A DNA stretch of 64,000 nt from Candidatus Hodarchaeota archaeon (GTDB lineage: Archaea; Asgardarchaeota; Heimdallarchaeia; Hodarchaeales; Hodarchaeaceae): assembly GCA_016839815.1 (NCBI GenBank), contig JAEOTM010000133.1, forward strand, positions 1-64,000, written 5' to 3'. The translations under genes and the position numbers were made by a program. The notes beneath the pieces are model-generated. The model worked only from the letters and a program-made list of their open reading frames with translations. It searched no databases and was not told the DNA's origin. Every line of letters starts with the position of its first letter. Within the stretch, counting starts at the first letter, position 1. This document shows positions 5,919 to 64,000 of this stretch, in pieces.

Positions 5919-5919
5919 A

Positions 5920-5955: not shown

Positions 5956-5994
5956 AGAATTGTTCTTGTACTCTTTTCTTCCATTTTTAGGTTC

Positions 5995-45329: not shown

Positions 45330-45332
45330 TAA

Positions 45333-46635: not shown

Positions 46636-47110
46636 TTAAGTATTTAGGTTGAACCTTGAAACAGTTTCAGAGAGATTATCTGCTAATTCGGTTAAGCTTT
46701 CGGCTGAGGAAGCCATCTGATTCATTGCCGCTGTTTGCTCTTCTGTAGCAGCAGCTACTTGTTCACTAGAGGCACTAAATTCTTCAGATTGTGCTGAAAA
46801 TCCCTGTATAGTTTCATGTAAGGTAGAAATGTTCCCAGCTATATTTGTAACCATCCGATCTGTGAGATTCGAGATATCAGAAGCATTCGTTTTGGTTTCT
46901 TCAGCTAATCTTCTTACATTATCTGCAACAACTGCAAATCCGCGTCCGAATTCTCCAGCTCGTGCCGCCTCAATTGCTGCATTGAGAGCTAGGATATTAG
47001 TTTGACTAGCAATGTCCTCTATTACCTGTAAAGTTGTTTCTACATCTGCTAATGAGTGATCAACCACTTCTGAGATTCTTTTAATTTCCTCTATTGTTTT
47101 TACTGACTGA
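46636..47110 (-). pseudogene. N-terminally truncated methyl-accepting chemotaxis protein (signalling hairpin only)
   Basis: [31 protein letters not shown]. Similarity to the full MCPs extends upstream of the GTG ([18 protein letters not shown] vs [18 protein letters not shown]), then stops at an (ACTG)3 tract. An in-frame TAA lies shortly upstream. Confidence 0.7.
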
Positions 47111-47226
47111 CTGACTTTCAGGGAGTTTAGTAATTCCCAATTTTTGAAATATTACCTTTAATAACGTAATTTCTGCAATATCCACAAAATATGCCTCTTT
47201 GGACCAATTAAATATTTGAGACTACT

Positions 47227-47928
47227 TCAACTAAATCTAGGAATTGTAAATTCAACGGTTGTGCCTTTATTGATTCCAGCACTGTTTATCGACATTGTTC
47301 CGCCGTGATTTCTTATTATTATATTGGAAATGAATAAACCAATACCCGTACCCCCAATTGAGTATTTCGTGGGTATTGAAACAAAGGGATCTGAGACTTT
47401 CTTCAAGTCTTGAATGGAAATCCCAGCACCATTATCTGAAATTGAGATTTTGATGATATCAGTCAGAGTCAGATTGCATAATACGCTTATATGTCTACGA
47501 GTTATAGAAGTGTGGTCAATTGAATTTTGAATTATATTGTCAATCGCTTGAGCAATGCGTTCTGAATCTACCACAACTATCGAATTCTTTTTACCATTAT
47601 GAATTAATTTGTATTCAAAACGTTTTTCAAATCTTATTCTATATGGTTCGAATATAGTTTCTAGTAAATCAGAAATATTAACAGAATCCAGAACTAAATT
47701 TAGGTTACCTTGCGTTATATTATCAAGCTCATCGATACTGCCAACAAAACGTTCTAAGCGAAGAATATTCTTATCTAGAAGCTGAAAACACCTATCTCGT
47801 TCCTTAGAAGTCAGTTTTTCATTTTTTGAATTTAAAATTTCACAATATCCTTTAACTATATGTAGAACCTGTCTTAGTTCTCGTGAAGTCAATGATAAGA
47901 ATTCTGATTTAAATTGGTCTGTTTCCAA
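47227..47928 (-). CDS. Sensor-less HisKA-HATPase protein lacking the phospho-accepting His (pseudokinase candidate)
   Basis: H-box reads TSRELRQVL versus ASHELRTPL in the neighbouring kinase. N box NIIQNSIDH, DNGAGI and GTGIGL are intact. TTG start behind GGAGTGA. Confidence 0.8.
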   Translation of the reverse strand: METDQFKSEFLSLTSRELRQVLHIVKGYCEILNSKNEKLTSKERDRCFQLLDKNILRLERFVGSIDELDNITQGNLNLVLDSVNISDLLETIFEPYRIRFEKRFEYKLIHNGKKNSIVVVDSERIAQAIDNIIQNSIDHTSITRRHISVLCNLTLTDIIKISISDNGAGISIQDLKKVSDPFVSIPTKYSIGGTGIGLFISNIIIRNHGGTMSINSAGINKGTTVEFTIPRFS

Positions 47929-48080
47929 TTTTGTTCACTCCAAATCATTTTTAGGATATTTTGATTACGTTTTTCACCTTATTTCTTTAAATTGTGTCAT
48001 TAGATCAGCTTGAAAATAATTATTTTTTCAATCTAAATCCTAATTACCTATTAAACAATATGCTTAACTATATGATAAAA

Positions 48081-48112
48081 ATAAGGAAAACAATAAGGAA
48101 AAAAAGGGAAAC
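48081..48112 (-). promoter_or_regulatory. Triple TTTCC motif, site A (upstream of the pseudokinase; may double as terminator of the large kinase)
   Basis: GGAAA cores on + at 48085, 48097 and 48107; ATAAGGAAAA repeated exactly 12 bp apart; AT-rich TATA-like tract on the gene side. Confidence 0.5.
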
Positions 48113-48117
48113 TGAGA

Positions 48118-51100
48118 TTAAGGAGTTCCAAATACACGAGGGAGAGTTAGAGTAAAAGTAGAACCCTTGTCAATCCCATCACTCCTGACAGTGAGAGAGC
48201 CTCCATGAGCAATCATAGTTTGTTTCGCAATAAACAAACCGATTCCAGTTCCAATAACCGAATACTTAGAGGGAAGAGATACAAATTGCTCAAAAATTCT
48301 TTCATAATTCTCAGGAAGAATACCAGTACCATTATCCTCTACTGAAATGGTAATTACATTTGGAAATATTTCTGTTCGCACGTTTATTTTACGAAAATCA
48401 TTTGAGGTGTGTTTGACTGCATTTTCAATTAAGTTATCTATAACAAATCGAATTCGATCTTTATCCATATTTGCATATGCATTAAAGGATCCTGGAGGTA
48501 AAGAAAACATTATTTGATTTTTTAAATGCTTTCTATAGACCTTTTCTTGCTCTTTCATAAATTTACATATCTCTACATCTTTTAAATCAAAACTAAAGTT
48601 GTTATTCTCAATTTTTGAAATATCAAGAACTCCTGTTACTAATCGTTCAAGTCTTCTTATATTTCGCATTACCGTTCCTAGACATTTCTTACGTTGATAC
48701 TCATTTATTTTATCGAAGTGATTTTCTAGGAACTCAGTAGATCCCCTAATTATGGTTAATGGAGTCCGTAATTCATGAGAAGCCATTGTTACAAAATTAG
48801 ATCGATCTTCTTCAGCCTGTTTCAGAATGGAGATATCAGTTACAACGGAAAGATAACCATTCAAAGCTCCATGATCTGAATAAATTGGTGTAGTATTTAC
48901 AATTACTGGTAACAGCGCACCCTCTTTTGTTAGTAAAGTCGATTCAAATGTTCGCTTTGGATTTAATGAAAGTTTTTCAAATTCTAATTTAATTCTAGCA
49001 AATTCTTCAACTGGAATAATGAGATTCCAATATTTCCCGATCAATTCATTTTCGGTATATTCAAGGAGCTCACAAATTTTTGAATTTACAAAGGAGAATT
49101 GATGATCTAAACTTTCCAGTATAACTCCCTCCTGGAGATTCTCTATAAGTAGCTGATACTTATTTTTAGCTTGTCGCAATTCTTCCTCGACCTTTTTCCT
49201 ATCTGTAATATCGCGAGAAATGGAAAGTCCGACTTGTCTATTACTTAATGAAAAAAGGTGTGAATTTATTTCGACTGGAATTTTTCTTCCATTTTTAGTT
49301 ACATGTGCCGTTTCAAATGGTTTATTGACTAGATCAAATATCTTTTTTCCCATTTTCTTAAGTTTTTTATTCTCCTCATCTGTTTTTACATCCAGAGGAG
49401 TCATATTCAATAATTCCTCTTTGGTATATTCTAATCTCTGACAGGCTATATCATTTACCTCAATGAAGAGACCAATTTCTCCATTTGGTAAGATTTCAAA
49501 TAGATAGATTGCATCATTGGCATTATTAAACAGATTCCGATATTTCTCCTCAGAATTTTCTACTAGTAATTCTGAATGTTTTTGGGTTGTTATATCAAAG
49601 AACACTCCGTAAGCGCACTTTTCTCCTTCTTCTTCATAAACCATCAAACCGCGATCATGTAACCAGATATATTCCCCATCTTTTCTTCTAATACGATATT
49701 CAATGTCAAAGGAGGCGTTTTTTTCTAAAAGATTGTTAAATTTTACCTTTACTCTTTCTAAATCTTCAGGATGAATTCTGTTAAACCATAACTCCCTCCC
49801 CGCTTGATATATTTCTTCAGGAGAGTATCCGTATATATCAGAGATATTTTTACTCACAAAGTTCGTATGACCCGTTGAAGTAGATATCCATGTGACCCCT
49901 GGAATATTTGCAATTAAGGATTGGTATCTTTCTTCACTCTCTTTGAGTTGTCTTTTAGCGAGTTCAGAACTGGTTTTATCTCGAAATGATGCCACCATCT
50001 TCATGGGTTCAGTTTGAAAAGCAACTACCTCATAGATTCCTTTGATTTGTGTATCCTCATATGTAATTTGCTCTAGTTTCCACACCTGGCCTGTTCGGGC
50101 TACTCTCCGATAATTTTCTGGAATTTCAGTTTTGCTAAGAGGAGGAAACGCTTCCTCTATTGTTTTACCAATGAATTGATTCGTTTTGACCTTTAAAATA
50201 TCCCCTGCTGCGGGATTTGCTCCTAAAAACACTAATCGTCCGTCCTCCATCAGTTGATATTCTATCATCCCAAAAGGACTTGAATTGAAAATATTACGGT
50301 ATTTTTGTTCTGATAGTTTCAAGTCGCTTTCTGTTTGTTTATAGCCTGTAATATCAACATCTATCTTTAAGAACCCGCACGGAAAGCTATTCTGGTCCTT
50401 TACAAGAGATATTCGCGATCCAGCCCAAAAAATTGTTCCATTTTTTCGCTTTTGCTTAATTTGACCTTTCCAAGTTTCCTTCTCAACAGTTTTTATTATT
50501 TTTTGAAACTCTTTGGACTTTTTTTCTTCAGGAAAGGTTATTGATATGTTTGATCCTAATATTTCCTCTGCTTGATATCCATAAAGATCTCTAGCACCCT
50601 TTCCCCAATAAATTATTTTTTTATTCAAATTGATAGCAACAATTGATTCTTGAACACTATCAAGCAAACGTGCCTGAAAAAGAAGGCGCTCTTCCTTCCT
50701 TTTTCTGACTGTAATATCAATTCCTTGAAGTATTATGAGATTTGTAGGGGAATCTCTTCGATATATCTCATGAGCTGAAAATTCTATCCATCTCTTCTCA
50801 TCATCTCTTCTCTGGATTTCGATTTCAGTAATTTTTTGTAAAAGAGGCCTCGGTTCCTCCACTATAGTTAAAATAGCTTCGCGTTTCTTCATATCTGGTA
50901 CTAAAATTGATAGCCAGGAATCAAGATCATTAATCTCACCTAACTGATAACCAGTAAGACTTTCCATTGCCGCATTGTAATTCAAAATAGTTTTAGTCTC
51001 ATCCAATACAAGTGCAGGTTTCTCACTTTGACTAAATGCATTCCAAATATGTAGATCTTCAATCTTTCTAAACTCAAGTACTTCTAATACATTTCTCAAA

Positions 51101-51729
51101 TCCAAATTCGATTCAAAACCATGTCTTAATTTATTTACCGTATTCTCCTGATTAGAATTCTCCATAGTTTTATTAAAAAATTCTGTACCAATGATAGCAA
51201 TGGGATGTAGCAGGAATATGTCAGTTAGAAGTTTTAAATCAATCTGATTTTTATCGAATTGGTCGAGAAATAAACAATTGTCCTCTACACAAAATTCTGT
51301 AATATATCTTTCAAAATTTAGAAAATCTTGAGTAATATGGTCATTATTTGCCCCCAACCATGACATTTCACTGGCAACGCGTAACTTAGTCTGTCCTTCT
51401 GATATCAGACTACTCGTAAATTCCTTTAATTTTAATATTACACGATAAGGGGAGAAACAACCCGCATCCAGAAAAAACTCTTCTAGTGAAATTATCTCTA
51501 CTTGTTGTGATTGCAGATATTCATCCATTTCAATATACTGTGAAAGTTCTTTAAATATATAATCCCGTTGATCATAAGGGACGATCAATAAAATCTTTTC
51601 TTTATTTTCAATCCCCGAAATAACAAATGATGATAATATATTCAATCTTTCTTTATCATCAGTGTATATATTGCAAATATGTGAATTGATCAGTCCTTTG
51701 TTTGACCCCTGTTTCACATAATCGAACAT
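48118..51729 (-). CDS. Cytoplasmic MEDS-6xPAS histidine kinase
   Basis: MEDS pattern (HICNIY...LRVASEMSW...FLLHP), six PAS/PAC repeats ending in DIT/DIS/DKT, SHELRTPL, NLIENAVKH, DNGTGI, GTGIGL. Confidence 0.9.
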   Translation of the reverse strand: MFDYVKQGSNKGLINSHICNIYTDDKERLNILSSFVISGIENKEKILLIVPYDQRDYIFKELSQYIEMDEYLQSQQVEIISLEEFFLDAGCFSPYRVILKLKEFTSSLISEGQTKLRVASEMSWLGANNDHITQDFLNFERYITEFCVEDNCLFLDQFDKNQIDLKLLTDIFLLHPIAIIGTEFFNKTMENSNQENTVNKLRHGFESNLDLRNVLEVLEFRKIEDLHIWNAFSQSEKPALVLDETKTILNYNAAMESLTGYQLGEINDLDSWLSILVPDMKKREAILTIVEEPRPLLQKITEIEIQRRDDEKRWIEFSAHEIYRRDSPTNLIILQGIDITVRKRKEERLLFQARLLDSVQESIVAINLNKKIIYWGKGARDLYGYQAEEILGSNISITFPEEKKSKEFQKIIKTVEKETWKGQIKQKRKNGTIFWAGSRISLVKDQNSFPCGFLKIDVDITGYKQTESDLKLSEQKYRNIFNSSPFGMIEYQLMEDGRLVFLGANPAAGDILKVKTNQFIGKTIEEAFPPLSKTEIPENYRRVARTGQVWKLEQITYEDTQIKGIYEVVAFQTEPMKMVASFRDKTSSELAKRQLKESEERYQSLIANIPGVTWISTSTGHTNFVSKNISDIYGYSPEEIYQAGRELWFNRIHPEDLERVKVKFNNLLEKNASFDIEYRIRRKDGEYIWLHDRGLMVYEEEGEKCAYGVFFDITTQKHSELLVENSEEKYRNLFNNANDAIYLFEILPNGEIGLFIEVNDIACQRLEYTKEELLNMTPLDVKTDEENKKLKKMGKKIFDLVNKPFETAHVTKNGRKIPVEINSHLFSLSNRQVGLSISRDITDRKKVEEELRQAKNKYQLLIENLQEGVILESLDHQFSFVNSKICELLEYTENELIGKYWNLIIPVEEFARIKLEFEKLSLNPKRTFESTLLTKEGALLPVIVNTTPIYSDHGALNGYLSVVTDISILKQAEEDRSNFVTMASHELRTPLTIIRGSTEFLENHFDKINEYQRKKCLGTVMRNIRRLERLVTGVLDISKIENNNFSFDLKDVEICKFMKEQEKVYRKHLKNQIMFSLPPGSFNAYANMDKDRIRFVIDNLIENAVKHTSNDFRKINVRTEIFPNVITISVEDNGTGILPENYERIFEQFVSLPSKYSVIGTGIGLFIAKQTMIAHGGSLTVRSDGIDKGSTFTLTLPRVFGTP

Positions 51730-51796
51730 GTCTTGTCTATCCTAAAATCCTCTGACACACCTTCTATTGAAATTAAACATTCAATTAAAATAAAAA

Positions 51797-51827
51797 TTTG
51801 GAAAGTTCCAAGGAAAGATAAGGAAAA
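51797..51827 (-). promoter_or_regulatory. Triple TTTCC motif, site B (upstream of the MEDS-PAS kinase)
   Basis: GGAAA cores at 51800, 51812 and 51822 in a divergent intergenic region, so not a terminator; TTTTATTTTAA follows on the minus strand. Confidence 0.6.
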
Positions 51828-52022
51828 AAGTAAAACTTCTAATTTCAAGTAAGCAATTTTTCTCTTATTTCCTTGACTATTTCAACTTTAATCAAGCTAT
51901 AAAGGGGGAATCCGAACTATACTGATTCAAGAACAGATGAATTTACGTCTAACGTATCAGTGAACACTGTAAACCCTTTTTTTCACATTCAATTTAGTTT
52001 TCACAGGAGAAAAGAAATTTTC

Positions 52023-52062
52023 TTTCACTAGTTTTTCCATATTCCTTTCCGAATATATATAT
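52023..52062 (+). promoter_or_regulatory. Triple TTTCC motif, site C, plus TATA box (upstream of the + strand PAS-DUF835-wHTH gene)
   Basis: TTTCA 52023, TTTCC 52034, TTTCC 52046, then TATATATAT at 52054-52062. Orientation flips with the gene. Confidence 0.6.
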
Positions 52063-52114
52063 CAAAACATGGGAATTATCATTTACTTGAAAAATCACTT
52101 AGGGAGAGTACATT

Positions 52115-54721
52115 ATGGCAATTCAGGATGAGACACAAAAAAAATCCAGTTCAAAGGTTACAGAAATTTATAATACCATTTTTGACAATTCACATATTGG
52201 TCTTGCGATCTGTGATTCAGAAGGATTCTTTATTGATGCAAATCCACAGTGCTTAAAGATTTTTGGGATTCCAAGAATCGGAAAAGTAAAGGGATACAGT
52301 TTATTCGAAGAACCTAATCTTTCGGAGATGTTCAAAGAGAAATTAAAATCAGGGAAAGCAGTAATGTATAAATCTGTTTTTAATTTTGAAAAGATTAAAC
52401 AATTAAACCTTTTTGAAACAGAAAAATCTGGAACAATAGATGTTGCTTACCAAATCTCTCCAATCGTTCTTCAAGGACAATCGAATCTTGAGGGTTATAT
52501 TATATATGTCCAAGATATCTCAGACAAGATTCAAGAGCAAAAGGAATGTTTAAGCCATGAAATAAAATTCCAGGAAATTTTTAACAATGTAAATGATGGG
52601 ATAGTGATTACAGATCCAAGTACTCGACCGGGGAGGTTCTTAGAAGTTAACAGAGTTTTTTGTGAAAGACTTGGATACACTAAGTCTGAACTTTTAGAAA
52701 TGAGTACAATGGATACGAATACAGGAGAATTTAATCCTCCGCTCCAAGAAATATATGAAACCTTGGAGAAATATAATTCGGCTACATTCAAAAACGTAGA
52801 CTTAACTAAGGATGGTACTCGCATTCCTGTGGAGGTTAATACGTATCTATTTAGCCTTAATGGTAGACACGTCTTATTATCAGTTTCTAGAGATATCAGA
52901 GATCGGATACAGTTCATAAAACAAGTTGAGGAAAATGATTCTTTGCTTAATACACTTTTAACAAATTTACCATTGGTTCTATATCAGATAAATTCAGAGG
53001 GATTTTTTACTAAATCAGAAGGTGCTGGATTAGTACACCGAGGCCTAAAAGAGCATATAAGAATCGGAGTGAATGTCTTTGAAGCTTGGCCTGAATTCAC
53101 TGATAAATTTCAGCGCGCACTAAGGGGAGAAAATGTACGTTTTGAAGCACATAGGGAAATCAATGGCAAGATGATGTCTTATCTTACTTTTTTAATGCCT
53201 GATAATAACGCTGAAAGAGGGATTATAGGGATTGTTATCAATTTATCCGAGCAGGAGGATTTAAAGAGAAAATTGATCCAAAGTGAGGAGAAATATCGTT
53301 CCTTAATTGATCAGGCGAATGATGGGATTATAATCATTCAAGATGACAAAATGGTGTTAATTAACCATAAATTTGCTAGAATGCTTGGGTACACAATTGA
53401 TGAACTGCAAGACAGATCAAATTTCGATCTTGTTCATCCAGATGTCTCTTCGGAATTAAATGAGCGAAGAAAAAGAAGGTTAAGAGGTGAACAAGTCGAA
53501 TCAATCTACGAAACTATACTAGTGAAAAAAGATGGTGACTCCTTAGATGTCGAATTAAACGTAGATCTTATTGATTACGAAGGAAAACAGGCTTTTCTCT
53601 CCTTCGTTAGAGATATTACTGATAGAAAAAGAGCAGAAAGGCGGATTAAGGAATCAGAAAGAAAATATCGGATGATAATCGAAACTGCACAAGAAGGTGT
53701 CTTTCTACTGGATTCTGAACAGAGAATTACTTATGCAAATCAGCAGTTTTCCGAAATGATAGGGTATTCACTTGAAAATCTGATTGGTCATTCAATATAT
53801 GAATATATCAGAACAGAAACACACAAGAAAATTAAACTCCTCATTAATAGAATCACAAAAGGAACCAAAGAAAGTTTCGATTTTCCCTTTCATCGCAGAG
53901 ATGGATCAATTTTTTGGGGATTACTGCAAACTAATCCAATATTTGACGAAAAGGGAAGAATAAAAGGTATTTTAGGTATGATTCTTGATATCTCTGATCG
54001 AAAAAAGATGGAAGAACAGACTAGAAAACAGCTTTTGAAATTTAACGTTGAGGGGGGTTATGTTTACCTGGTGAAAGAAAGTTCGTCAACATTATCCCTC
54101 AGTGTCTTTAAAGATCTTTGTCAATTAGGATATCAATGCCTAGCTTTTTCTAGAACTCTTGAACGAGATTTCCAAAAGAATATCGATACAGAATGTAGAT
54201 TTTATTGGCTTGCACAAAAAGGAAACTTAAATTCTATTCAACCAGATTTAAATAGTATACTATCAGAAATAGAGAAACAGAACCAAAGATCAGTTGTATT
54301 AATTGACAGATTGGATTTTCTGATTCAGAAAAATGGATTTAAAGATGTTTTGAACTTCATCTATGAATTAAAGGAAATTGCTTACACTGTTGACTTGATA
54401 ATCCTACTCTCTATTGATCCACAAACATTAACAAACCAGGAACTCCATCTACTAGAAAAAGAAACAAGTGAAATCGAGACTAGATCACTGGATAAAATTC
54501 CAGAAGATATGCTTTCGATTCTAAGATTTGTTTATCACAAGAATAATTCGGGAGTTAAGCCTGCTTACTCAGATCTTGGAACAGAATTTCAAATTAGCAG
54601 GCCAACTACAAGAAAACGAATAAAAACTTTAGTTGCTACTGGATATCTTTCAGAATACCGTTTTGGTATTCGCAAGATTTTAGAGGTTACCGAAAAGGGA
54701 AGAGCTTTCTTTTTAGATTAG
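52115..54721 (+). CDS. 5xPAS-DUF835-wHTH putative one-component transcription regulator
   Basis: Five PAS/PAC repeats; DUF835-like VYLVKE...FYWLA...VVLIDRLDFLIQKNGFKDVLNFIYELKE; C-terminal wHTH PAYSDLGTEFQISRPTTRKRIKTL...LEVTEKGR. Confidence 0.85.
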   Translation: MAIQDETQKKSSSKVTEIYNTIFDNSHIGLAICDSEGFFIDANPQCLKIFGIPRIGKVKGYSLFEEPNLSEMFKEKLKSGKAVMYKSVFNFEKIKQLNLFETEKSGTIDVAYQISPIVLQGQSNLEGYIIYVQDISDKIQEQKECLSHEIKFQEIFNNVNDGIVITDPSTRPGRFLEVNRVFCERLGYTKSELLEMSTMDTNTGEFNPPLQEIYETLEKYNSATFKNVDLTKDGTRIPVEVNTYLFSLNGRHVLLSVSRDIRDRIQFIKQVEENDSLLNTLLTNLPLVLYQINSEGFFTKSEGAGLVHRGLKEHIRIGVNVFEAWPEFTDKFQRALRGENVRFEAHREINGKMMSYLTFLMPDNNAERGIIGIVINLSEQEDLKRKLIQSEEKYRSLIDQANDGIIIIQDDKMVLINHKFARMLGYTIDELQDRSNFDLVHPDVSSELNERRKRRLRGEQVESIYETILVKKDGDSLDVELNVDLIDYEGKQAFLSFVRDITDRKRAERRIKESERKYRMIIETAQEGVFLLDSEQRITYANQQFSEMIGYSLENLIGHSIYEYIRTETHKKIKLLINRITKGTKESFDFPFHRRDGSIFWGLLQTNPIFDEKGRIKGILGMILDISDRKKMEEQTRKQLLKFNVEGGYVYLVKESSSTLSLSVFKDLCQLGYQCLAFSRTLERDFQKNIDTECRFYWLAQKGNLNSIQPDLNSILSEIEKQNQRSVVLIDRLDFLIQKNGFKDVLNFIYELKEIAYTVDLIILLSIDPQTLTNQELHLLEKETSEIETRSLDKIPEDMLSILRFVYHKNNSGVKPAYSDLGTEFQISRPTTRKRIKTLVATGYLSEYRFGIRKILEVTEKGRAFFLD

Positions 54722-55143
54722 AGAATATTCACAAATATTATCGAACGAAAAGAAAAATGAAGTAACAATCAAAATTTTCCCTCTAGTCTAATTATCCTGG
54801 TATAAATATACAAATCTTATTCCCTTTTCAACAAAATTCTCAAACAAGAATCTTTTCATAATTCAAGTAGTTCTCTGTTTCAGTTATTTCTTTCGTCTTT
54901 AAAAAACTAAGATAGCATTTTTCGCTGGAACATAATAAAGCGACTTCGTTTTCATCAAATTTCAGTACGGATTTAGTTAAATTCATAATTTTAAACCAAT
55001 TCTACTTTCTGAGTTGATTGGACCTCTCTTATAGGTCTGATATTCAATTGATCTGAATATGGGAAAATAAAATATCTTAAATATTAATTAAGCAACGAAA
55101 ATGGTAAAATTCGGAAAAAAAAGGGAAAAAATATCCTAAATAG

Positions 55144-57048
55144 CTAATTTAGGACTTTTTTTACAGTTTGAGGTTTTACACTTTTTTGAGATTCTAAAAG
55201 TTTGTATTGAGCAGCTAAAACGGTCATCTCATCTCCAAGTATAGTAAGCTCTTGAGCAGAGGATGTTAGCTGATTCATAGCTGCCGTTTGTTCTTCGGTG
55301 GCCGCAGCGACTTGTTCACTTGAAGCACTGAACTCTTCGGATTGTGCAGCAAAACTTTGTAAAGTTTCCTGAAGATTAACAACACTAGAACCAATATTAT
55401 TGACAATATCGTTAGTAACTTTACTTATATCAGCGGAATTTGTTTTAGTTTCTTCTGCCAATCGTCTTACATTATCTGCAACTACTGCAAATCCTCTACC
55501 ATATTCACCAGCTCTAGCTGCCTCAATGGCTGCATTTAGCGCAAGGATATTTGTTTGGCTTGCAATGTCTTCGATTACTTGTAAAGTTCCTTCAATATCT
55601 TTTAAGGACTGATCGACAACATCTGACATCTTTTTAACTTCATCTATGGCCTTAACTGATAAATCGGATTGGGTTGACGCCCCACGACTAATTTGTTGGA
55701 TTGTTGCTGCAATTTCTTCAGATAATGCATTTACTTCTTCAGAAGTCGAGGCTAATTCCTGGGCTGATGAGGCTAATTGGACTGCGGAATCCTGAGAACT
55801 TGAAATAAAATTCTTTAGATTGCTGATCATTGTAAGGAATGTGCGTCCAAGTGTACCAACCTCATCCACTCGATCTGTATCTAATTTTGAGACATCAGCT
55901 GTCAAATCGCCAGCTGAGACTTCTTCACTGAGCGCTGACATATTTGTTAGAGGCTTGGAAAAGCTAGTGGAGAAGTAAAATGCAATTATACCACAGACTA
56001 CTGCACTTACCATTGCTAAAACAACAGTATTAAACATATTGTTGAATACAAGGGCCTGCACTGATGAGACATTTTCAATAACCACAAGAACATACTCCCA
56101 ATCATCAGAACTTTCAAAACTTGCCAAATAAACTACTGATTCAATTTTAACTTTTTGATGACCATGATGAGTATCTTCAGTAACAATAGCATCTCGCATA
56201 TTTCTATTAGCTGAACTTGTGTTTTTTAGTAATGTAGATATATCGGTTCCAATATATGAAACATCAGAATGAGTGAATATCATCCCACTCCTTAATACTG
56301 TGAAGGCACTGGCTGAGGCTCCTTCCTCTGGATCAAAATTATCTTCTAAAAGTTGTGAAACAGCTCCAACGTCGTATCCTGCTTTTATCATTCCGATGAA
56401 TGTACCATTTGCTGATTCAACTTCAACTACAATGTCCATAAGAAATTGCCCTGTACTATCGTCATAACCGAATTCATGGAACACACCATTTGAGGATTGC
56501 CTGCAGGCAGTCCACCATCCTTCATCTACTTGTAGAAAATCACCTGGAACAGATTCAGTGGAAGCGTAAACATAACCTCTTTGATCTGTAACAAAAATTT
56601 CTGCATAATTATATTCTAGTGCAAAGTTGTTCAAATATTCCGAATAGAAGGGATCAATATCATTAGTGGGATCCCAAGCTACTGAAGTTTTATTTCCCTT
56701 TTTATTGAGATCATTATCCCAATTTGCTCCTTCGTAACTATCCCATAACAGCATTTCATTTGAGGAAGTCGCATTTAATGCCGTAATAACGGTTGCAGGA
56801 TTTTCTCCTAAGTTCTCTACATTTAAGCTCTGAGAAGAAAGTAAATTTTCTACAGTCGAGGTACTCTGGAACGCTAAAGTCGCCAAATTATCGTATTTGG
56901 TATTATATAAGTTAGTTTCCACATTATTGATGTTAAAAAAGCTTATTCCTAATATTGGCACCAAAGCAATAATCAATGTAAAAAACATGATTTTATAGGA
57001 AATTTTTTTACCAATTAATGGAAATTCTTTTGGAAAACTAAAAGCCAT
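55144..57048 (-). CDS. Methyl-accepting chemotaxis protein (TM, Cache-like extracellular domain, TM, HAMP, short MCP signal domain)
   Basis: Two TMs flanking a ~300-aa domain ([20 protein letters not shown]), HAMP KPL...[10 protein letters not shown], tip [24 protein letters not shown]. Start at ATG 57048 behind AGGTGA (track start 57060). Confidence 0.93.
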
Positions 57049-57136
57049 ATGTCTTTTCACCTAATTAATTTCTTCACCTTTATTTTTAATTCTAATAATA
57101 CTGAGTAAGATTTTTCCAATTATCTAATCCCTTTAC

Positions 57137-57180
57137 TATATTATATTCATAGGGAAAAAAACCATGAAACATAGGAAAAC
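57137..57180 (-). promoter_or_regulatory. Triple TTTCC motif, site D, plus TATA-like box (upstream of the Cache MCP)
   Basis: GGAAA 57153, TGAAA 57165 and GGAAA 57174 on +; the minus strand continues TATAATATA. Confidence 0.6.
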
Positions 57181-57364: not shown

Positions 57365-58525
57365 TTAGGTGAGTTGGAATTTCCGAACTTGAGTTGAGAG
57401 CTTTGTACTCATTTCAGCCAAATCTTGTGCAGCTTGAGTCATTTGATGCATTGAGGCTGATTGTTCTTCGGTGGCTGCAGCTACCTGTTCACTCGAAGCA
57501 CTAAACTCTTCTGATTGGGCAGCAAATCCTTGTAATGTCTCTTGAAGAGCTGATACACTTCCACCAATATTATTCACTATTTCTTCTGTTAAATTCTTAA
57601 TGTCGGCTGCATTTTCTTTGGTTTCTTCGGCGAGACGTCGAACATTGTCAGCTACCACAGCAAAACCCCTCCCAAATTCTCCAGCCCTTGCAGCTTCAAT
57701 TGCAGCATTTAGCGCTAAGATATTTGTTTGACTGGCTATATCTTCTATTACTTGCATTGAAGTTTCGATATTTTCCAGTGTTCGATCGACAGCACTAGAC
57801 ATTTCCTTTACATCTCCAATACCTTGAATAGCGAAATTGGATTGATTTGATGCACTTCGACTGATTTGTTGGATTGTCGCAGTTATTTCCTCTGAAAGCG
57901 CATTCACTTCCTCTGCTGTTGAAGCCAATTCCTCGGAAGAGGTAAATAAATTATCTGAAGCTTTCTGAGATTCCAGTATTATTTGAGCTATGTTTCCTGC
58001 CATATTATTTAGAGAATCCTCAACATACCCAAACTCTGTTCCGAACTTCACCAATCCTTCCTCCTTAATATTTAGGTGTCCCAATGAGATTTGATCTAAC
58101 TGAGCTTGTAGAGAGGATAATGGAGTTTGTACAGTTTTAATGGTATAAATGACTAAAAATACACAGAAAGTACCAATAAAACCATAGATAATAAGCGTTG
58201 TTGAAAGTGTTTCCCCCATCATCCTAGTCAGCGATGAAGACAATCCAATGATTGTTGAACATAATGAAAAGCACAAAGAGATTCGAAAATAGATACTTTG
58301 CTTAAAAATGATCCTTAGTCCTATAGAAAAAGCGATCCCAATCCCAATATTCATGATTAAACTCGCTTCTACAGGTGTTGTCGATCCCATCATTTCTGAT
58401 GGGAGGAATTGAGTGACAATAAAAGTAGTAGATCCTATAACAAAGGATATTAAACTAAATAGACCAATCGCTTTTATATAATTTGGATCATTTAGGAAAT
58501 TCTGTTTTATTTTGTAAGCACACAT
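57365..58525 (-). CDS. Methyl-accepting chemotaxis protein with a 4-TM integral-membrane sensor, HAMP-like linker and short signal domain
   Basis: Four hydrophobic helices and no large extracellular domain; TPLSSL...[12 protein letters not shown]; tip [24 protein letters not shown]. Confidence 0.92.
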
Positions 58526-58587
58526 ATGTCTTCCTCATAATATGATAATGGATTTTTTAATCACTTTCTGAGAATAATATTCAATAT

Positions 58588-58630
58588 TTATATATAAACA
58601 ATAGGAAAACATAAGGGAAAATTGTGAAAA
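58588..58630 (-). promoter_or_regulatory. Triple TTTCC motif, site E, plus TATA box (upstream of the 4-TM MCP)
   Basis: GGAAA 58604, GGAAA 58616, TGAAA 58625; the minus strand reads TTTTCCCTTATGTTTTCCTATTG-TTTATATATAAA. Confidence 0.65.
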
Positions 58631-58689
58631 CTGAGTTTTAAAGAAGGAGTCGAAGAAATTAGTCAGGTCAATACGTGAAAAATTTGTAT

Positions 58690-61302
58690 TCATTGATCAG
58701 ACATATGCGAAAATGAATTTAAACCTCTGAGTGTTAGCTCTAATACTTTGGTCCTTCCTTTTTGATTTTCTCTCAGATATCCGATTGAGGTTAGATGTTT
58801 AATACGTTTTCTTACGGTGGGTCTACTAACTCCCAATTCATTAGCGACTTGTGTATAACTTGGTTGAATCCCATTATTATTGCTAGCATAAATGAATCTC
58901 AATATTTCTAAGAGGTGCAAGGGAATTTCTGCTAGAACTCTTGTTTCTACCTCATTGGTCTCTTTTTCCAGTAATTTTATCTGTTCATCCGAAATTGTTT
59001 GACTATCGATTGATAGAATAATTACCAGATTCAAGAATATGGCTGTTTCCCTTAATTTGTAGATGAGCAAGAGAGTCTCTTTGAATCCATGTTTCGAGAT
59101 TAAATAATCTAATCTCTCAATCAGAATTACAGTTTTCGGTGGTAAACCTTCAATAGTGTGCTCTATTTTTTCGAATAGGGATGAAAATTTACTTTCTAAT
59201 ACTATTTCTGCAAGCCATAAATGCTTGAACTCTACATCTAATCTTTCCATACATTCGATTTCTGGAGTTCTTGACAAAATTGTACCTGAGTATCCAATCC
59301 GAATCATGTCACAGAATACTTCTCTCGAAAGGATCGGATCAACCTCTTTCACAAGATATAGTTGCTGATCTTCGATATTGAATTTAAGTAATTCCTGTCT
59401 CATTTTAGTTTCTATTTCTTTCTGTTTTGTTACATTTCGCCAAATACTCCCAATCATGAATCCAGACTGAGTTTTAATCGGAAATACATTTATTTGTACG
59501 TAATTATGTCCTCCATCTCGTTTCGTGATCTCTGTCTCAATTGGTCTTGAAAGCCATTCAGCTTTCCCTGTGTCAAGTACTCTAGTGAGTCTCTCAATAA
59601 TCAGGTTTGTAGATTCCGATTGAAGAACGTGAGTTGGCATTAAGGGTTTGTATATTTCCCAAAAAGGTTTACCAATGGCTATCTCCTTACTAATTCCTGT
59701 TAATTTCTCTATACCCCGATTCCATTGTACAACTTGTCCTTCTTCAGAAATAAGAATAATTCCATCACGAGAATTATCAATTAGATTTCTAATTTTAGTT
59801 TCACTTTCTCTTATGTTTTCTTCGATTTCTTTTAAGTATGTGATATCAACAAGAGAAGCATAAACCTTGGAAAGTGATTTCTCAAATCCAGGGACCACTG
59901 AAACTTTAATAATTACGTTTATCTTTTTTCCGTTAACGGAATAAATAATCCCCTCCCTTTCAAGGTTCATTTTGCCATTATATAGAGCGAGAAAATCATT
60001 CCTAAAATGTCTTAGTTGGTCCCCAAGAACAATGCTTGATTCTCCATATAAGTCTTCTATACTATCTGCTTCAAATAACTCTAGCGTAGATGAATTCGCT
60101 TTTACCGTTTTTGATAATTTTGCAATTGTATATGGATTTCTCTCTAGATATTCTTCCAAATCAACAATACCATTTTCTTTTAATTGATCCAAGAATTCCT
60201 TAGCCTTAGAGAAATCCAATTCGCGAATTGATACAGGAGAATCTTCAAATAATTGTCTGAAACTAATTTCACTTTCCCTAAGTGCGATTTCAGATTCCTT
60301 AAGAGCAGAAATATCAGTTACTGTTATAAAAACCTTAGAAAGACAGTCTTCAAATCCTGGAACAACAGCTGCTCTAATAAGTACATGAACACATTCACCT
60401 TTAAAGGTGTAAGCAGTTGTTTCTGTTTCAAATTGTGTTTCATTCTTAATGAGAGAAAAAATTAGGTCTGTAAAAGCAAATCGCTGTTCTTCACGAAGAT
60501 TCTTAAAGTTAGATCTTTGAAACTCTTCAATACTATTGGCGCTATAAAAGTTCAATGCAGCCTTATTTATACTATTAAATTTTGCATGATTGAGAATAGA
60601 ATTTAATTTCTCAGGCTCTCTTTTAAAATATTCATGAAAATTTTTAACCCCCGCTTTGCTTAGCTTGTCAAACCTCCTTTTTATTTCGGAGAAATCAACT
60701 TCCAATAAACTAATGGGTGAATCTTCGAATAGCCGCCGAAATTTCGCTTCACTCGTAATTAAACTATCTTCGATATTCTTTCGATCTGTTATATCGGTTA
60801 ATATACCATAACAATACTTGGTTCCGTCCTCCTCATAAGTAGTTAAACCTCGATCATGAAGCCAAATCCAAGAATTATCTTTTCTTTGAATTCGATATAC
60901 AACATCAAATATTTTATCGTCTGAAAATAGCTCTTTAAATGCCTTTTTCACATTATTTAGATCATCTTTATGAATCCTACCAAACCAGAGGTTTTGTTCA
61001 GCTTCATAAATTTCTTGGGGGGAGTATCCATACACTTTTTCAATATTAGGACTAATATATGTTGTCAATCCATCTTCATTCGTAATCCAACTCACAGCTG
61101 GAATATTCTCCACTATAGATTTGTATATTTCATCGCTTTTCAGTATCTTCTTTGATTTGAATTCTTCTCGGTCGATGAGATCTTCCATTACGTTCCTAGA
61201 GCTTAATTTGTCCTTTTTTTGTTCAGAGAGAGCTGTATGAATTATTTTCTTAACATCTTCAGATATATCTACTCTACTGAGAAGAGATTCAAGCTTTTTC
61301 AT
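58690..61302 (-). CDS. 4xPAS-DUF835-wHTH putative one-component transcription regulator
   Basis: Four PAS domains (two are tandem FEDSP..DFS paralogs); DUF835-like LYLVKE...VILIERLDYLISKHGFKETL; wHTH PSYTQVANELGVSRPTVRKRIKHL...LELTLRG. Confidence 0.85.
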   Translation of the reverse strand: MKKLESLLSRVDISEDVKKIIHTALSEQKKDKLSSRNVMEDLIDREEFKSKKILKSDEIYKSIVENIPAVSWITNEDGLTTYISPNIEKVYGYSPQEIYEAEQNLWFGRIHKDDLNNVKKAFKELFSDDKIFDVVYRIQRKDNSWIWLHDRGLTTYEEDGTKYCYGILTDITDRKNIEDSLITSEAKFRRLFEDSPISLLEVDFSEIKRRFDKLSKAGVKNFHEYFKREPEKLNSILNHAKFNSINKAALNFYSANSIEEFQRSNFKNLREEQRFAFTDLIFSLIKNETQFETETTAYTFKGECVHVLIRAAVVPGFEDCLSKVFITVTDISALKESEIALRESEISFRQLFEDSPVSIRELDFSKAKEFLDQLKENGIVDLEEYLERNPYTIAKLSKTVKANSSTLELFEADSIEDLYGESSIVLGDQLRHFRNDFLALYNGKMNLEREGIIYSVNGKKINVIIKVSVVPGFEKSLSKVYASLVDITYLKEIEENIRESETKIRNLIDNSRDGIILISEEGQVVQWNRGIEKLTGISKEIAIGKPFWEIYKPLMPTHVLQSESTNLIIERLTRVLDTGKAEWLSRPIETEITKRDGGHNYVQINVFPIKTQSGFMIGSIWRNVTKQKEIETKMRQELLKFNIEDQQLYLVKEVDPILSREVFCDMIRIGYSGTILSRTPEIECMERLDVEFKHLWLAEIVLESKFSSLFEKIEHTIEGLPPKTVILIERLDYLISKHGFKETLLLIYKLRETAIFLNLVIILSIDSQTISDEQIKLLEKETNEVETRVLAEIPLHLLEILRFIYASNNNGIQPSYTQVANELGVSRPTVRKRIKHLTSIGYLRENQKGRTKVLELTLRGLNSFSHMSDQ

Positions 61303-61425
61303 AGGGTATTCTAGTTACACATTTCTCAATAATAAAGCATTACAAATAAATTAGAAAGTATTTCAATTTCCCCCTCAAAAATGCTTGTAGAAATAATACT
61401 TTGACTGTTAAATTAAGGTTATAAC

Positions 61426-61995
61426 TTAATAAGCTTTTAACTTATTATTTTCAATTTTAAAAGAGTTTAAATCAATTAATTTCGTTTCTTTTTCCAATAG
61501 ACGTAGATTACGTGAATCTACTCCGTGAATTTTAAAGGAAATAATTACGATTAATGATTTTAAAATCACTAATTCTTTTAATTTATATATAAAGTGTAAA
61601 ATCTGTTTAAAACAAGTATGAGAAGTTAAATCATCCAATTCTTTTATAAATAGGATCTCCTTCCCTGTAGTTTTACTCACTGTATTTTTAATGGAATCAA
61701 ACAAAAATTCAGAGAGAGAACTTTCCATCACTTGTTCCATGTATTTTAAGGAAGTATGAATAGGTAAACCATCCTTTAAATCCTTTTCTGGACTTTTGGA
61801 TATGAGAATGACTTTATAACCTGCAGAAGATACGAAATTCAAATTTTCTTGAGAAAATAATGAAAAACCCTTCGTTAAGAGGTATATGCTTCCGGGTTGG
61901 AGTTCTAAACCTACTGGTAAATTCTCTAAAGTTTCATTTGGAATATTAGAATGATCTAATTTGTCTATTATTACGAGATAATAAGTATTGTTCAT
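61426..61995 (-). CDS. Stand-alone DUF835-like protein
   Basis: GSIYLL, VILISKSPE, ILFIKELDDL...FKQILHFIYKLKE..ILKSLIVIIS, LRLLEKETK, matching the DUF835 segments of the two regulators. Confidence 0.75.
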   Translation of the reverse strand: MNNTYYLVIIDKLDHSNIPNETLENLPVGLELQPGSIYLLTKGFSLFSQENLNFVSSAGYKVILISKSPEKDLKDGLPIHTSLKYMEQVMESSLSEFLFDSIKNTVSKTTGKEILFIKELDDLTSHTCFKQILHFIYKLKELVILKSLIVIISFKIHGVDSRNLRLLEKETKLIDLNSFKIENNKLKAY

Positions 61996-62083
61996 TTCAT
62001 CACGATTTGTTCTTTTTCTTTGAGTTTAGAGTCACCCTGAGTGTTGAACTCTATATTATCTCTAACTTTTTATTAAAATAAAG

Positions 62084-62104
62084 ATAAGGAAAATTTCATG
62101 TAAA
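62084..62104 (-). promoter_or_regulatory. TTTCC motif, site F (upstream of stand-alone DUF835), partial
   Basis: ATAAGGAAAA at 62084-62093 (core 62088), with a degenerate GTAAA 12 bp further out; AT-rich TATA-like tract on the gene side. Confidence 0.45.
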
Positions 62105-62145
62105 AATAAAATAAAAATTATTATTGTTCTAGCAAGAAAGGATAA

Positions 62146-63204
62146 TTATTCTGCGTGTACTAGATATGTCAATAGATACTCGACGAACGGACTACTTCTT
62201 TCTATAGTTTCAATATCATCTTGGATAATATACGAAATTGGCTTTTTATGGTTCAATCTTCCCCTAGGAGATCGAGGAATCCTATTGACAACAGCTATTA
62301 TCTTAGTATCCCCATTTATCTTGAGATTATGCAACTTTCGTATTTCTTTAGAAGTTAGGTTTGTGTGAATCACCAAAATATCATATGTTGTTGTTTCATT
62401 ATATTGTTCGATCAAATTAGTTAGTACTTGGAAATTATTACAGTAAAATGGATGTATATCATTACTTTGAAGTATTATGCTTAGCTTTTCAAACAAGATT
62501 TCGTTATTGCTGAAAATTAAGAGTTTCTTATCTTCTTGTTTTAAGATATTAGCTTTTAAATCTCTTATCAATCGATAAAGCACATCTTGGAGTTTTGCCT
62601 CTAATATATCATCCTGAATTACCGTAGAAATGACATCTTTTAAGCTAGCTATTTTTTTTATCGAATCTTTTAATGAGTCAAAGCCTAAATCGGAAAATAG
62701 TTGAATACCCCTCCAATATATGAATTCTATAGGAATATTTCCTACAATCGCTTCCATAAATAAATTCTGGAACTGTTCTCTTTTAATATCTTCTAAGAGT
62801 TCTTGATCGGTCAAGAAACTCTTTATTTCACTTGTAAATGTATCTGTTTCTAGACTCCAATCAAAAAGGAGATTTTCCATTGTGCTAAGGTATTTTTCAA
62901 CAAATTTTGTGCCTATGAATTGTAGCATAATTTTTACTGAGAAGGGTTGAACTTTTTCTGTACTCCCTGACACGATTGCTGCGACAATTATCTCCCCGAT
63001 CGATTCAAAATATAATTCATCCTCTCCCAATTTTAAATATTCGACTGACTTATGGTCAGTAGTAAGGGATTCAGCAAAATTTGCAAGTCCTGATACAAGC
63101 CCTGAAAACAATTGGTCTTCGATCTGATAATCTGAAAATTCAGCCTCAAAATGATAGTGACATAAGCCGATTTTTGAAATAATCCATAGATTTTTGATTA
63201 TCAT
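62146..63204 (-). CDS. Longin-like N-terminal domain fused to a degenerate receiver-like C-terminal domain
   Basis: N-term IKNLWIISKIGLCHY...DQLFSGLVSGLANFAESL...FVEKY is the pattern of Asgard longin-type proteins. C-term KKLLIFSNN...YDILVIHTNL...TKIIAVV...SYII follows the REC beta/alpha pattern without the acidic pocket. Confidence 0.65.
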   Translation of the reverse strand: MIIKNLWIISKIGLCHYHFEAEFSDYQIEDQLFSGLVSGLANFAESLTTDHKSVEYLKLGEDELYFESIGEIIVAAIVSGSTEKVQPFSVKIMLQFIGTKFVEKYLSTMENLLFDWSLETDTFTSEIKSFLTDQELLEDIKREQFQNLFMEAIVGNIPIEFIYWRGIQLFSDLGFDSLKDSIKKIASLKDVISTVIQDDILEAKLQDVLYRLIRDLKANILKQEDKKLLIFSNNEILFEKLSIILQSNDIHPFYCNNFQVLTNLIEQYNETTTYDILVIHTNLTSKEIRKLHNLKINGDTKIIAVVNRIPRSPRGRLNHKKPISYIIQDDIETIERSSPFVEYLLTYLVHAE

Positions 63205-63237
63205 TTTTGACTTCCTTCATTACAATGAGGCAAATAC

Positions 63238-64000
63238 TTAGTTTTTTCGTCTATAAATTCGATTTTTCGTATCAATTATCTCAAATTTATCTTTAATAAA
63301 CTGTGGGAGAACTTCACATCTACCTAATACTAAATAACCACGAGATTTAAGAGAGGAATAGAATTGCTCAAAAAAAACTTTACTCTGCGATCTTGAGAAG
63401 TAGATCAACACGTTCCGACACATAATTAGGTCAAAATCCTTACCTGGGGGTGTAGTTCTAAGATCATGCTGTTGAAAACTTACCAAATTCCTAATTTGTC
63501 TAGAAAGTTGAAACTGTTCTGAATCTAGAGGTGTGAAGTATTTAAGTCGTCTAGGATGATCTGTTTCCTCTAATGATTGTTTTGCATAAATTCCCTTTCT
63601 TGCTTGTTCTAACAGCGCCTGGTTAATATCAGTAGCTAGGAGATATATTTTATTAGGAGGATATTTCTCTTGCAAATCTTTTAAGATCATGGCCAAGCTA
63701 TAGGGTTCAGGACCTATTGCACATCCAGCACTCCAAATTCTAATATTTTTAGAGGTATCCTTCATAATAGTAGGAAAAATTTTCTTTTCTAATGCTATAA
63801 ATAATTCCTTATCTCGAAAAAAACGAGTTACATTGATAGAAAAAGTCTCCATAAGAAGATTGAATTCTCTAGGGTTCCTTTTCAATACATTATGATATTC
63901 TCTATATGTTTCTGTTTCGATTCTTTTCATCCGTGCATGCAAACGTCGAAGAAAATGATTAATTTTGTAAGCTTGATAATTTATACCCCTATTCAAGAGG
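63238..64000 (-). CDS. cheR: Chemotaxis protein-glutamate O-methyltransferase, 5' end beyond window edge
   Basis: YK...LRRL..RM, INVTRFFRD, IRIWSAGCAIGPEPYSLAM, ATDIN, FDLIMCRNVLIYF, GYLVLGRCE. Confidence 0.95.
   Translation of the reverse strand, partial: LLNRGINYQAYKINHFLRRLHARMKRIETETYREYHNVLKRNPREFNLLMETFSINVTRFFRDKELFIALEKKIFPTIMKDTSKNIRIWSAGCAIGPEPYSLAMILKDLQEKYPPNKIYLLATDINQALLEQARKGIYAKQSLEETDHPRRLKYFTPLDSEQFQLSRQIRNLVSFQQHDLRTTPPGKDFDLIMCRNVLIYFSRSQSKVFFEQFYSSLKSRGYLVLGRCEVLPQFIKDKFEIIDTKNRIYRRKN

Follow-up and report, generated by a model that had tools for sequence, protein, structure and literature searches.

In the euryarchaea Halobacterium and Haloferax, the signal of the chemotaxis (Che) system passes from phosphorylated CheY (CheY-P) through CheF to ArlCDE, the switch of the archaellum. 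In Myxococcus, the Che-like Frz pathway acts on a polarity module of the GTPase MglA and the Roadblock protein MglB, which is not a longin and whose gene lies outside the frz operon. Here we analyze a chemosensory island of Candidatus Hodarchaeota archaeon (assembly GCA_016839815.1) and, in particular, two small proteins encoded with its che genes, Lng241 and Lng352. The island starts in the right part of the window, i.e., the first 64,000 of the 77,338 bases of contig C98 (JAEOTM010000133.1), and continues past its edge; position numbers run on accordingly. On balance, we lean towards the view that its che system is of a known kind, that the longin-type components are new and probably act at the output, and that the neighbouring genes are variable and co-regulated. 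Complete che pathways have already been noted in Heimdall-group Asgard archaea (bioRxiv 10.1101/385732), and a cultured Hodarchaeales strain with actin-driven protrusions has been filmed in eukaryote-like crawling (PMC13716822); we found no paper connecting longin proteins with a che system.

The source genome (G000; 4.24 Mb, 89.5% complete) was compared with 21 others of its genus (22 genomes with G000) and with a class set of 41 genomes. CheA is detected in 12 genomes of the genus, and the other 10 are without detected CheA. Domains were called with Pfam and, for proteins without a Pfam match, also with NCBIfam at permissive E-values. The loci around Lng352 and CheA were compared across the genus, and a search of genome contigs for related loci returned a single one, a contig of G018. 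Given below as observed are gene content, folds, synteny, the phyletic distribution, and where a promoter motif is placed and conserved.

The che operon and the proteins Lng241 and Lng352

The transcription unit has the order Lng241–cheW–cheW2–cheY–cheA–cheC–cheD–cheR–Lng352, with cheB upstream behind a 326-bp promoter region; intergenic gaps from Lng241 down to Lng352 are −8 to 74 bp, hence these genes are read as one unit. All of them are on the minus strand. Beyond the window edge lie Lng241 (70933–71658, an unannotated gene between cheW and cheB), cheW (70343–70927), the 748-aa multi-CheW gene cheW2 (68022–70268), cheY (67657–68025), cheA (65710–67611), cheC (65073–65717), and cheD (64472–65035), as well as cheB (71985–73082) and the promoter box of Lng241 and the che unit (71870–71884). 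The gene cheR (63238–64440) has its 3′ part (63238–64000) inside the window, and Lng352 (62146–63204), the last gene of the unit, begins 33 bp past cheR. A Che core of bacterial type is thus present in one locus, with MCP, CheW, CheA (Hpt–P2–dimerisation–HATPase–CheW), CheY, CheR, and CheB recognized by Pfam, and the gene order of the operon is kept in 8 genomes of the genus. The initial annotation of the window had suggested that cheA, cheW, cheY, and cheB might lie beyond its right edge; annotation of the flank finds them there, with two cheW genes and also cheC and cheD. The seeming absence of the che core is a window-edge artefact, and the core itself is standard.

Lng241 is called as a protein of 183 aa from its first ATG, and its reading frame is open and conserved over 241 codons. 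The AlphaFold 2 (AF2) model, built with 22 homologues, has the strand and helix order of a longin domain, beta-beta-alpha-beta-beta-beta-alpha(-alpha), with a predicted local distance difference test score (pLDDT) of 62–81 over residues 21–133. The tail of the protein has a conserved motif, D-S-T-Y-L-x-S-E-Y-S-G-T, at about residues 198–209. Comparison with solved structures (VIA-align) gives Z-scores of 12.4 for synbindin, 12.0 for sedlin, 10.9 for SRX, and 10.6 for VAMP7, with superpositions of 110–125 residues at a root-mean-square deviation (rmsd) of 2.5–3.3. Overall, residues 24–180 match longin structures at Z 8–12.4, Sec22, AP sigma/mu, and Mon1–Ccz1 being also among them, and longin proteins make up nearly all of the top 50 fold matches; no CheF-like or PH-like structure is among the 50 matches listed, which is not an exclusion. 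The best Foldseek matches are TRAPP, AP sigma, and Sec22. As modelled, Lng241 has the longin fold. Neither Lng241 nor Lng352 has a Pfam or NCBIfam longin or Robl_LC7 match, even at E up to 5.

Nine operons from eight genomes have Lng241 placed between cheB and cheW: those of G000, G018 (two operons), G020, G009, G007, G001, G012, and G014. Its orthologues (profile search, E ≤ 1e-95) are found in 11 of the 12 CheA-positive and in none of the 10 CheA-negative genomes of the genus (Fisher's P 3e-5, overstated since the genomes are related). The sole CheA-positive genome in which Lng241 is not found is G017, where the che contig stops inside cheW2, and the two che operons of G018 come with two Lng241 copies. 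G019 has a che operon without Lng241, the gene instead directly adjoining Lng352; Lng241 adjoins Lng352 also in G004, where the che contig is too short for the operon to be checked. The family comprises 44 clusters, all of them hypothetical proteins from Hodarchaeales/Heimdall metagenome-assembled genomes (MAGs). Lng241 is, in our estimate, very probably a true che component.

The 58 conserved N-terminal codons of Lng241 contain no ATG, GTG, or TTG start (contig C98, 71640–71670, minus strand; L001:9640–9670), and several of the public gene calls for close relatives are 185 aa long for the same start-codon reason. The start region reads GAGGTG-TAA-TAT-ATC in G000 and GAGGTG-TTA-TAA-ATT-ATC in G020; in both, an in-frame TAA follows two or three codons past the GTG that serves as the start in G018. 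Since G000 and G020 share this stop and the coding sequence after it is conserved, translation may begin at an ATC or ATT, 6–9 nt after the Shine–Dalgarno-like GAGGTG.

Lng352 (352 aa) consists of a longin-like N-terminal domain (residues 1 to approximately 130), a helical middle part, and a pseudo-receiver (224–352). The call of a longin/pseudo-receiver fusion, already made from the window, holds, its longin part provisionally. Residues 224–352 superpose on approximately 45 receiver structures (Z 10–11, 104–118 residues, rmsd 2.5–3.3), and the C-terminal domain is thus predicted to have the CheY-like (beta-alpha)5 receiver fold. Aligned with genuine receivers (alignment A7), the pocket in G000 shows S-N-N, His280, Asn, and Gln for DD, Asp57, Thr87, and Lys109. 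In orthologues the Asp57 position varies (H/K/Q/D/N/E), and none of them retains Thr87 or Lys109; judged by these residues, the domain is a pseudo-receiver without phospho-acceptor chemistry. The N-terminal domain aligns to the longin domain of Lng241: a profile of 26 N-domain sequences gives an hhalign E of 4e-5 (probability 70%, 72 columns, b1–b5), while the first comparison, of alignment A3 with A2, was weak (E 1e-3, probability 21%) and improved only with the N-domain-only, more diverse profile. Against PDB sequences, the N-domain profile matches Bet5 (E 0.017) and, weakly, TRAPPC1 and Mon1; profiles of the full-length alignments A3 and A2, searched against PDB sequences, yield designed proteins and noise only. 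The longin fold of this domain is hence suggested but not decided. The che unit both begins and ends with a longin-type gene, two in all.

Full-length orthologues of Lng352 are found in 12 of the 21 other genomes of the genus, and the gene adjoins cheR only in G000, G018, and G020. Its co-occurrence with CheA is weak (10/12 CheA-positive and 3/10 CheA-negative genomes). Away from che, its neighbours are GNAT, NAD synthase, and Lhr helicase genes, and these give no functional clue. The family has 40 cluster representatives among 1.84e9 proteins. In three distant relatives (P0018, P0020, P0029) a genuine N-terminal receiver (REC) is fused to the longin and helical module, and one REC–longin fusion gene adjoins two PAS kinases. 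By these comparisons both longin proteins belong to phosphorelay/che signalling, an assignment that is firm for Lng241 and conditional for Lng352. That Lng352 works with Lng241 has, in our view, an even chance or slightly better; prediction of their complex (full length, own alignments, without controls) scores 0.15 against a mark of 0.32, which is evidence neither way.

Longin-like domains of this kind are also seen in other proteins. In G000, a 928-aa surface protein with beta-helix and immunoglobulin-like parts (C50:22517–25303) carries one at its end; its gene shares 4 bp with a histidine-kinase gene and is approximately 2.7 kb away from an oppositely oriented HAMP-MCP. A TPR–longin protein (C151:13049–15262) is encoded 3.7 kb from an MCP; this proximity of MCP and longin genes on C50 and C151 is loose and was observed post hoc, and it is not used here as evidence. 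A further open reading frame (ORF) with the domain is C198:776–3854, and in a 368-aa protein (L046:1685–2791, plus strand, G000 contig C83) an N-terminal histone fold (CBFD_NFYB_HMF, E 7.5e-8) is joined to a longin-like domain that spans residues 99–218. Outside the genus, a 236-aa ORF of G034, from another family of the class, has a longin-like domain of the Lng352 type (E 6e-14; L036:14093–14803, plus strand) and lies in a che cluster, 2.4 kb from cheA, which hints that the proximity of che and longin genes may reach beyond this genus.

The che genes themselves show some further variation. CheR (400 aa) has an N-terminal extension of approximately 147 aa ahead of CheR_N, for which there is no Pfam match; CheR is 394–400 aa long also in G009, G007, G018, and G021. 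The multi-CheW protein is longer in G009, G007, and G014 (1,142–1,150 aa versus 748 aa in G000; L027:12226–15678, L028:12102–15539, L031:5850–9278), the difference being approximately 400 additional N-terminal residues. Besides the cheB upstream of Lng241, there is a second cheB in G009, G007, G014, and G021 (L027:6801–7904, L028:6712–7812, L031:12327–13427, L038:5609–6709), convergent with cheR or, in G014, with cheC. The context of the che operon differs in G009 and G007 (Eco57I-type methylase, PALP enzyme, CCA/polyA polymerase); the operon has therefore been relocated within the genus.

Output of the che pathway

CheF (PF04283) is found in none of the 41 genomes of the class, among them G007 (99% complete) and the single-contig G009, and the control genomes are positive. 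Archaellin (PF01917) is found in none of the 22 genomes of the genus, again including the 99%-complete MAG and the single-contig genome, with control genomes as expected, and Arch_fla_DE (PF04659; ArlD/E) is not found in G000. A standard che operon with CheF and archaellum had been named at the outset as what could account for the receptors and CheR by itself; the operon is indeed standard, but CheF and archaellin are not found by Pfam. Because CheF, ArlD/E, and archaellin are undetected, we infer that the longin proteins are on the output side; this placement is tentative and somewhat short of even.

Another possible target is an unclassified type-IV-filament locus of G000 (contig C150:4000–20000, L043; genes at 1837–9712, minus strand). 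It encodes the pilin-like proteins DUF7289, DUF7266, and DUF7261 and a FlaI-like ATPase with a PilB3-type C-terminus, closest to FlaI at 424 bits, below the cut-off of 550; the platform protein is split in two genes corresponding to the N- and C-terminal halves of ArlJ/UpsF. With this ATPase and split platform, a divergent filament is present. The ATPase is 89–98% identical across the genus, and 40 of the 41 class genomes contain it, irrespective of che. As a co-occurring output the filament hence gives no signal, and this distribution neither supports nor excludes it as the target.

In the mechanism that we propose, MCPs would signal via CheW and CheA to CheY, with CheR, CheB, CheC, and CheD serving adaptation. 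Lng241 and Lng352, here the first and the last gene of the unit, would form an adaptor or platform receiving the CheY/CheA signal and handing it to an effector, the candidates being the type-IV filament on C150 or a GTPase/cytoskeleton module. A more specific version, in which the Che chain steers a longin platform that acts on a small GTPase and/or the actin protrusion machinery and not on a rotary filament, seems to us distinctly unlikely; if true, it would mean a bacterial-type array steering eukaryote-like crawling, i.e., an archaeal counterpart of Frz–MglA/MglB that might prefigure polarity signalling from receptors to GTPases.

Lng241 follows the che operon gene-for-gene across the genus, and together with Lng352 it is a named candidate for the missing output step, from a fold class used in eukaryotes as platforms of GTPase regulators. 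The vague question of whether Asgard chemotaxis is functional, and on what it acts, becomes one of experiments on two small proteins. For an archaeon of the Asgard group, near the lineage of eukaryotes, the operon provides a definite locus at which the targets of chemotaxis can be tested.

Promoter box and neighbouring genes of the island

The initial annotation described ten consecutive signalling genes in the window; their domains are confirmed by Pfam almost item by item, with corrections for a truncated MCP and for the che core beyond the edge. Six of their promoter regions were said to share a motif, which is borne out in the window and extends to Lng241 beyond it. The consensus, TTTCC(Y)TAT, frequently occurs twice in tandem with a TATA-like box directly adjoining. 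A doubled box, TTTCCTTAT-TG-TTTTCCTTAT, abuts the TATA box upstream of the His-less kinase gene (48081–48101, minus strand). Boxes with TATA are situated upstream of the MEDS kinase (51783–51826, minus); a variant box (TTTCCGAA) with TATA, upstream of PAS-DUF835-A (52046–52062, plus); a doubled box with TATA, upstream of Cache-MCP (57137–57178, minus); and boxes with TATA, upstream of HAMP-MCP (58583–58608, minus) and of the free DUF835 gene (62067–62092, minus), the latter being kept in G018.

Coding-strand boxes are present in 5 of approximately 13 upstream regions of the island, compared with 50 of 2,623 genome-wide (hypergeometric P 2.4e-6); counting Lng241, six island regions carry the box (P 6e-8). 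Although made post hoc, this test is robust. Outside the island 45 upstream regions bear the box, in no case ahead of a gene of signalling type, and the strict doubled box elsewhere in the genome is mostly within ORFs. The count over the whole window, 6 versus 3.4 expected, is not above chance, the non-random part being the placement and the arrangement of box plus TATA. The box is kept at orthologous promoters of G018 (both Lng241 copies, both MCPs, and DUF835) and at one MCP promoter of G001; the che promoters of G009, G007, G014, G012, and G019 are without it, and in these genomes che has no DUF835 regulator beside it. A shared, island-specific box fits a local regulon, through which the other genes of the island would be variable neighbours co-regulated with the receptors and the che operon.

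The candidate regulators are two one-component proteins of approximately 870 aa each (Pfam and alignment A4), regulator A with the order PAS(x4)–DUF835(iKaiC)–winged helix-turn-helix (wHTH) (52115–54721, plus strand) and regulator B with PAS–PAS–DUF835(iKaiC)–wHTH (58690–61302, minus), ending in a common wHTH, ISRPTTRKRIK..GYL. Regulator B has an orthologue at the same position in G018 (58% identity), and a related 608-aa gene adjoins cheR in G001. The stand-alone DUF835 (iKaiC) gene (189 aa; 61426–61995, minus), paired with regulator B, is borderline by Pfam (33.0 bits versus a cut-off of 33.1), and its counterpart at the same position in G018 (181 aa) scores 49 bits; the PF05763 scores of the three island proteins are 80.4, 48.5, and 33.0 bits. 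It is possible, though somewhat doubtful, that the wHTH regulators of the island bind the TTTCCYTAT box. Genes for DUF835 are found in 19 of 21 genomes of the genus, eight of these without detected CheA, and, judged from this distribution, DUF835 is not che-specific. G000 itself has only four, three of them within the island, and only in G000, G018, and G001 does che have flanking PAS-DUF835-wHTH genes. For PAS-iKaiC-wHTH one-component regulators, the island is a convenient small model with a defined candidate operator.

DUF835 and MEDS are inactivated KaiC-like domains (iKaiC), according to the passages of PMC5847659 that cite Makarova et al. (2017; PMC5717392). No Walker A motif ([GA]xxxxGK[ST]) is found in the three DUF835 proteins or in the MEDS kinase, which fits this description. 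The latter is a MEDS(iKaiC)–PAS–HisKA–HATPase sensor kinase of 1,203 aa (48118–51729, minus strand) with an intact H-box (MASHELRTPL); of the MEDS-6xPAS kinase proposed earlier, the MEDS domain and the kinase part stand, and five PAS domains are detected by Pfam, not six (5–6 in all). The His-less kinase (233 aa; 47227–47928, minus) is a stand-alone DHp (HisKA) and HATPase core whose H-box, LTSRELRQVL (SRELR, not SHELR), has lost the phospho-acceptor His, HATPase_c being intact. The idea that several components are catalytically dead is thereby upheld for this kinase, the pseudo-receiver of Lng352, and the DUF835 and MEDS domains.

Among the ten genes, Pfam recognizes two chemoreceptors with a HAMP domain, dCache-HAMP-MCP (638 aa; 55144–57060, minus strand) and HAMP-MCP (386 aa; 57365–58525, minus). 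The latter is kept beside the che operon in G018 (71% identity) and G020 (45%). A class of short MCP receptors, proposed earlier, is not supported: the 143-aa ORF (46636–47067, minus), with MCPsignal only and no promoter box upstream, aligns in tblastn, at 90% identity, only with residues 238–393 of the 393-aa MCP that occupies this position in G018, residues 1–237 being without a match, i.e., it is the truncated 3′ remnant of a HAMP-MCP gene and not an intact receptor. Between this remnant and HAMP-MCP there is an approximately 10-kb block (about 47.1–57.4 kb) with the His-less kinase, the MEDS kinase, PAS-DUF835-A, and Cache-MCP. The closest relatives, G018 (acn–MCP393–MCP385–PAS-DUF835-wHTH–DUF835–Lng352–cheR...) and G020 (acn–MCP fragment–MCP–Lng352–cheR...), do not have this block at their che loci. 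Judging by this comparison, the arrival of the block truncated an MCP gene. A scan for bacterial promoters and terminators in the convergent gap 54722–55143 gave nothing useful.

Two paralogous pairs of aconitase-family large and small subunit genes flank the entire island of approximately 28 kb (window, 44802–46598; contig C98, 74480–76287). Divergent from cheB is a gene for a 349-aa coiled-coil protein (contig C98, 73260–74309, plus strand) without a family match, with homologues (31–35% identity) at the same position in G020 and G001. Neither this protein nor the 377-aa left neighbour has a Pfam or NCBIfam match at permissive E-values.

Alternative readings and comparison with known systems

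The initial annotation took all ten genes as one candidate integrated sensory system that may join receptor signalling to a regulon and to a longin output. The tie of the longin proteins to che and the shared box speak for parts of this proposal, as do the contiguity of the ten genes and the several catalytically dead components. A single conserved ten-gene system, however, is largely contradicted by synteny and in our judgement very improbable. The His-less kinase, the MEDS kinase, PAS-DUF835-A, and Cache-MCP are missing from the che loci of G018 and G020. In G009, G007, G014, and G012, no such kinase, DUF835, or Cache-MCP gene neighbours the che operon, and the CheA-less genomes with DUF835 genes also argue against a single system. 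No orthologue of the His-less kinase is found in G001–G014, where the best matches are 36–39% identical cores of larger kinases; for G018 and G020 the inspection was of the che loci only. It is also conceivable, though unlikely, that Lng352 is an unrelated neighbour and that only Lng241 belongs to the che system, with output to the type-IV filament via Lng241 or an unrecognized adaptor. The filament locus does have its FlaI-like ATPase, and Lng352 adjoins che in three closely related species only, with housekeeping contexts elsewhere and the weak co-occurrence with CheA given above. However, the direct adjacency of Lng241 and Lng352 in G019 and G004 is hard to credit to chance for two such tiny families, the two proteins apparently share a homologous longin domain, the REC–longin fusions link the Lng352 family to phosphorelay signalling, and the filament ATPase is present irrespective of che.

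A somewhat stronger but still rather unlikely alternative has the longin proteins on the input or adaptation side, as array scaffolds together with multi-CheW, as CheA regulators, or as a sink for CheY-P or a phosphatase partner. Translational adjacency links Lng241 to cheW, 5 bp away, and to the multi-CheW gene, and the CheY-like pseudo-receiver of Lng352 could dock as a decoy on CheA P2 or on CheC/CheD. The array and adaptation roles, however, are already filled by CheW, multi-CheW, CheC, CheD, CheR, and CheB, while that of an output adaptor is empty, and longin domains in structures are typically platforms for GTPases and coat or tether complexes, not for receptor arrays. Several points nevertheless weigh against longin proteins at the output. 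The position inside the operon by itself fits an output, array, adaptation, or phosphatase role alike, and contacts among the longin proteins or with CheY are ones that we infer. Pfam models of archaellin and CheF may miss divergent Asgard versions, archaellum parts are scattered in some Asgard genomes (PMC13705601), and the near-universal filament could be the target via a longin-free route. The AF2 model of the Lng352 N-domain (13 orthologues) has the right strand and helix order but a pLDDT below 50; the fold search thus covered the receiver domain only. In seven species Lng352 lies among housekeeping genes at least 200 kb from che, or in a genome without detected CheA; G005, G008, and G010 have Lng352 and no detected CheA, and the CheA-positive G001 and G012 are without Lng352, therefore the tie of Lng352 to che is facultative. 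Approximately 35 ORFs of G000 carry a longin-like domain of the Lng352 type, which makes a longin gene near che less improbable than it appears. Finally, the wHTH regulators are linked to the box solely by proximity and rough co-distribution.

Compared with the CheF-type system of euryarchaea, the island has the same core of MCP, CheW, CheA, CheY, CheR, CheB, CheC, and CheD in one operon, and in both an archaea-specific non-Che protein is encoded with the che genes. Here, however, CheF (41 genomes), archaellin (genus), and Arch_fla_DE (G000) are not found, and the in-operon protein has the predicted longin fold. Similar to Frz, a Che-like pathway occurs with a longin/roadblock-class protein and a degenerate receiver, the receiver of FrzS being among the matches of Lng352 (rank 49); unlike Frz, no small-GTPase gene lies in or beside the island, and a GTPase link here is speculation. 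With eukaryotic and Asgard longin platforms (TRAPP Bet5/synbindin/sedlin, SRX, Mon1–Ccz1, N-domains of AP sigma/mu), Lng241 has the fold in common; the families of Lng241 and Lng352, in contrast, are tiny, restricted to Hodarchaeales/Heimdall MAGs, and without a Pfam or NCBIfam match, their members are encoded with che genes, and Lng352 is fused to a pseudo-receiver (a real receiver in relatives).

Like archaeal iKaiC proteins, the DUF835 and MEDS proteins of the island lack Walker A and are combined with PAS and two-component modules. REC-DUF835 and REC-PAS-PAS-DUF835 are already listed in the catalogue of PMC5847659; its table, which covers response regulators only, does not contain PAS(n)-DUF835-wHTH. 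The island differs from this catalogue by the latter, a one-component DNA-binding form, and by a free DUF835, both near che and with the promoter box. Residues 224–352 of Lng352 resemble the phosphorylation-independent atypical receivers HP1043 (PDB 2hqr) and FrzS (2gkg), with Z 9.8–10.8 and the phospho-acceptor chemistry apparently lost; unlike these, the receiver of Lng352 is placed C-terminally to a longin and helical module, and its Asp57 position is variable among orthologues.

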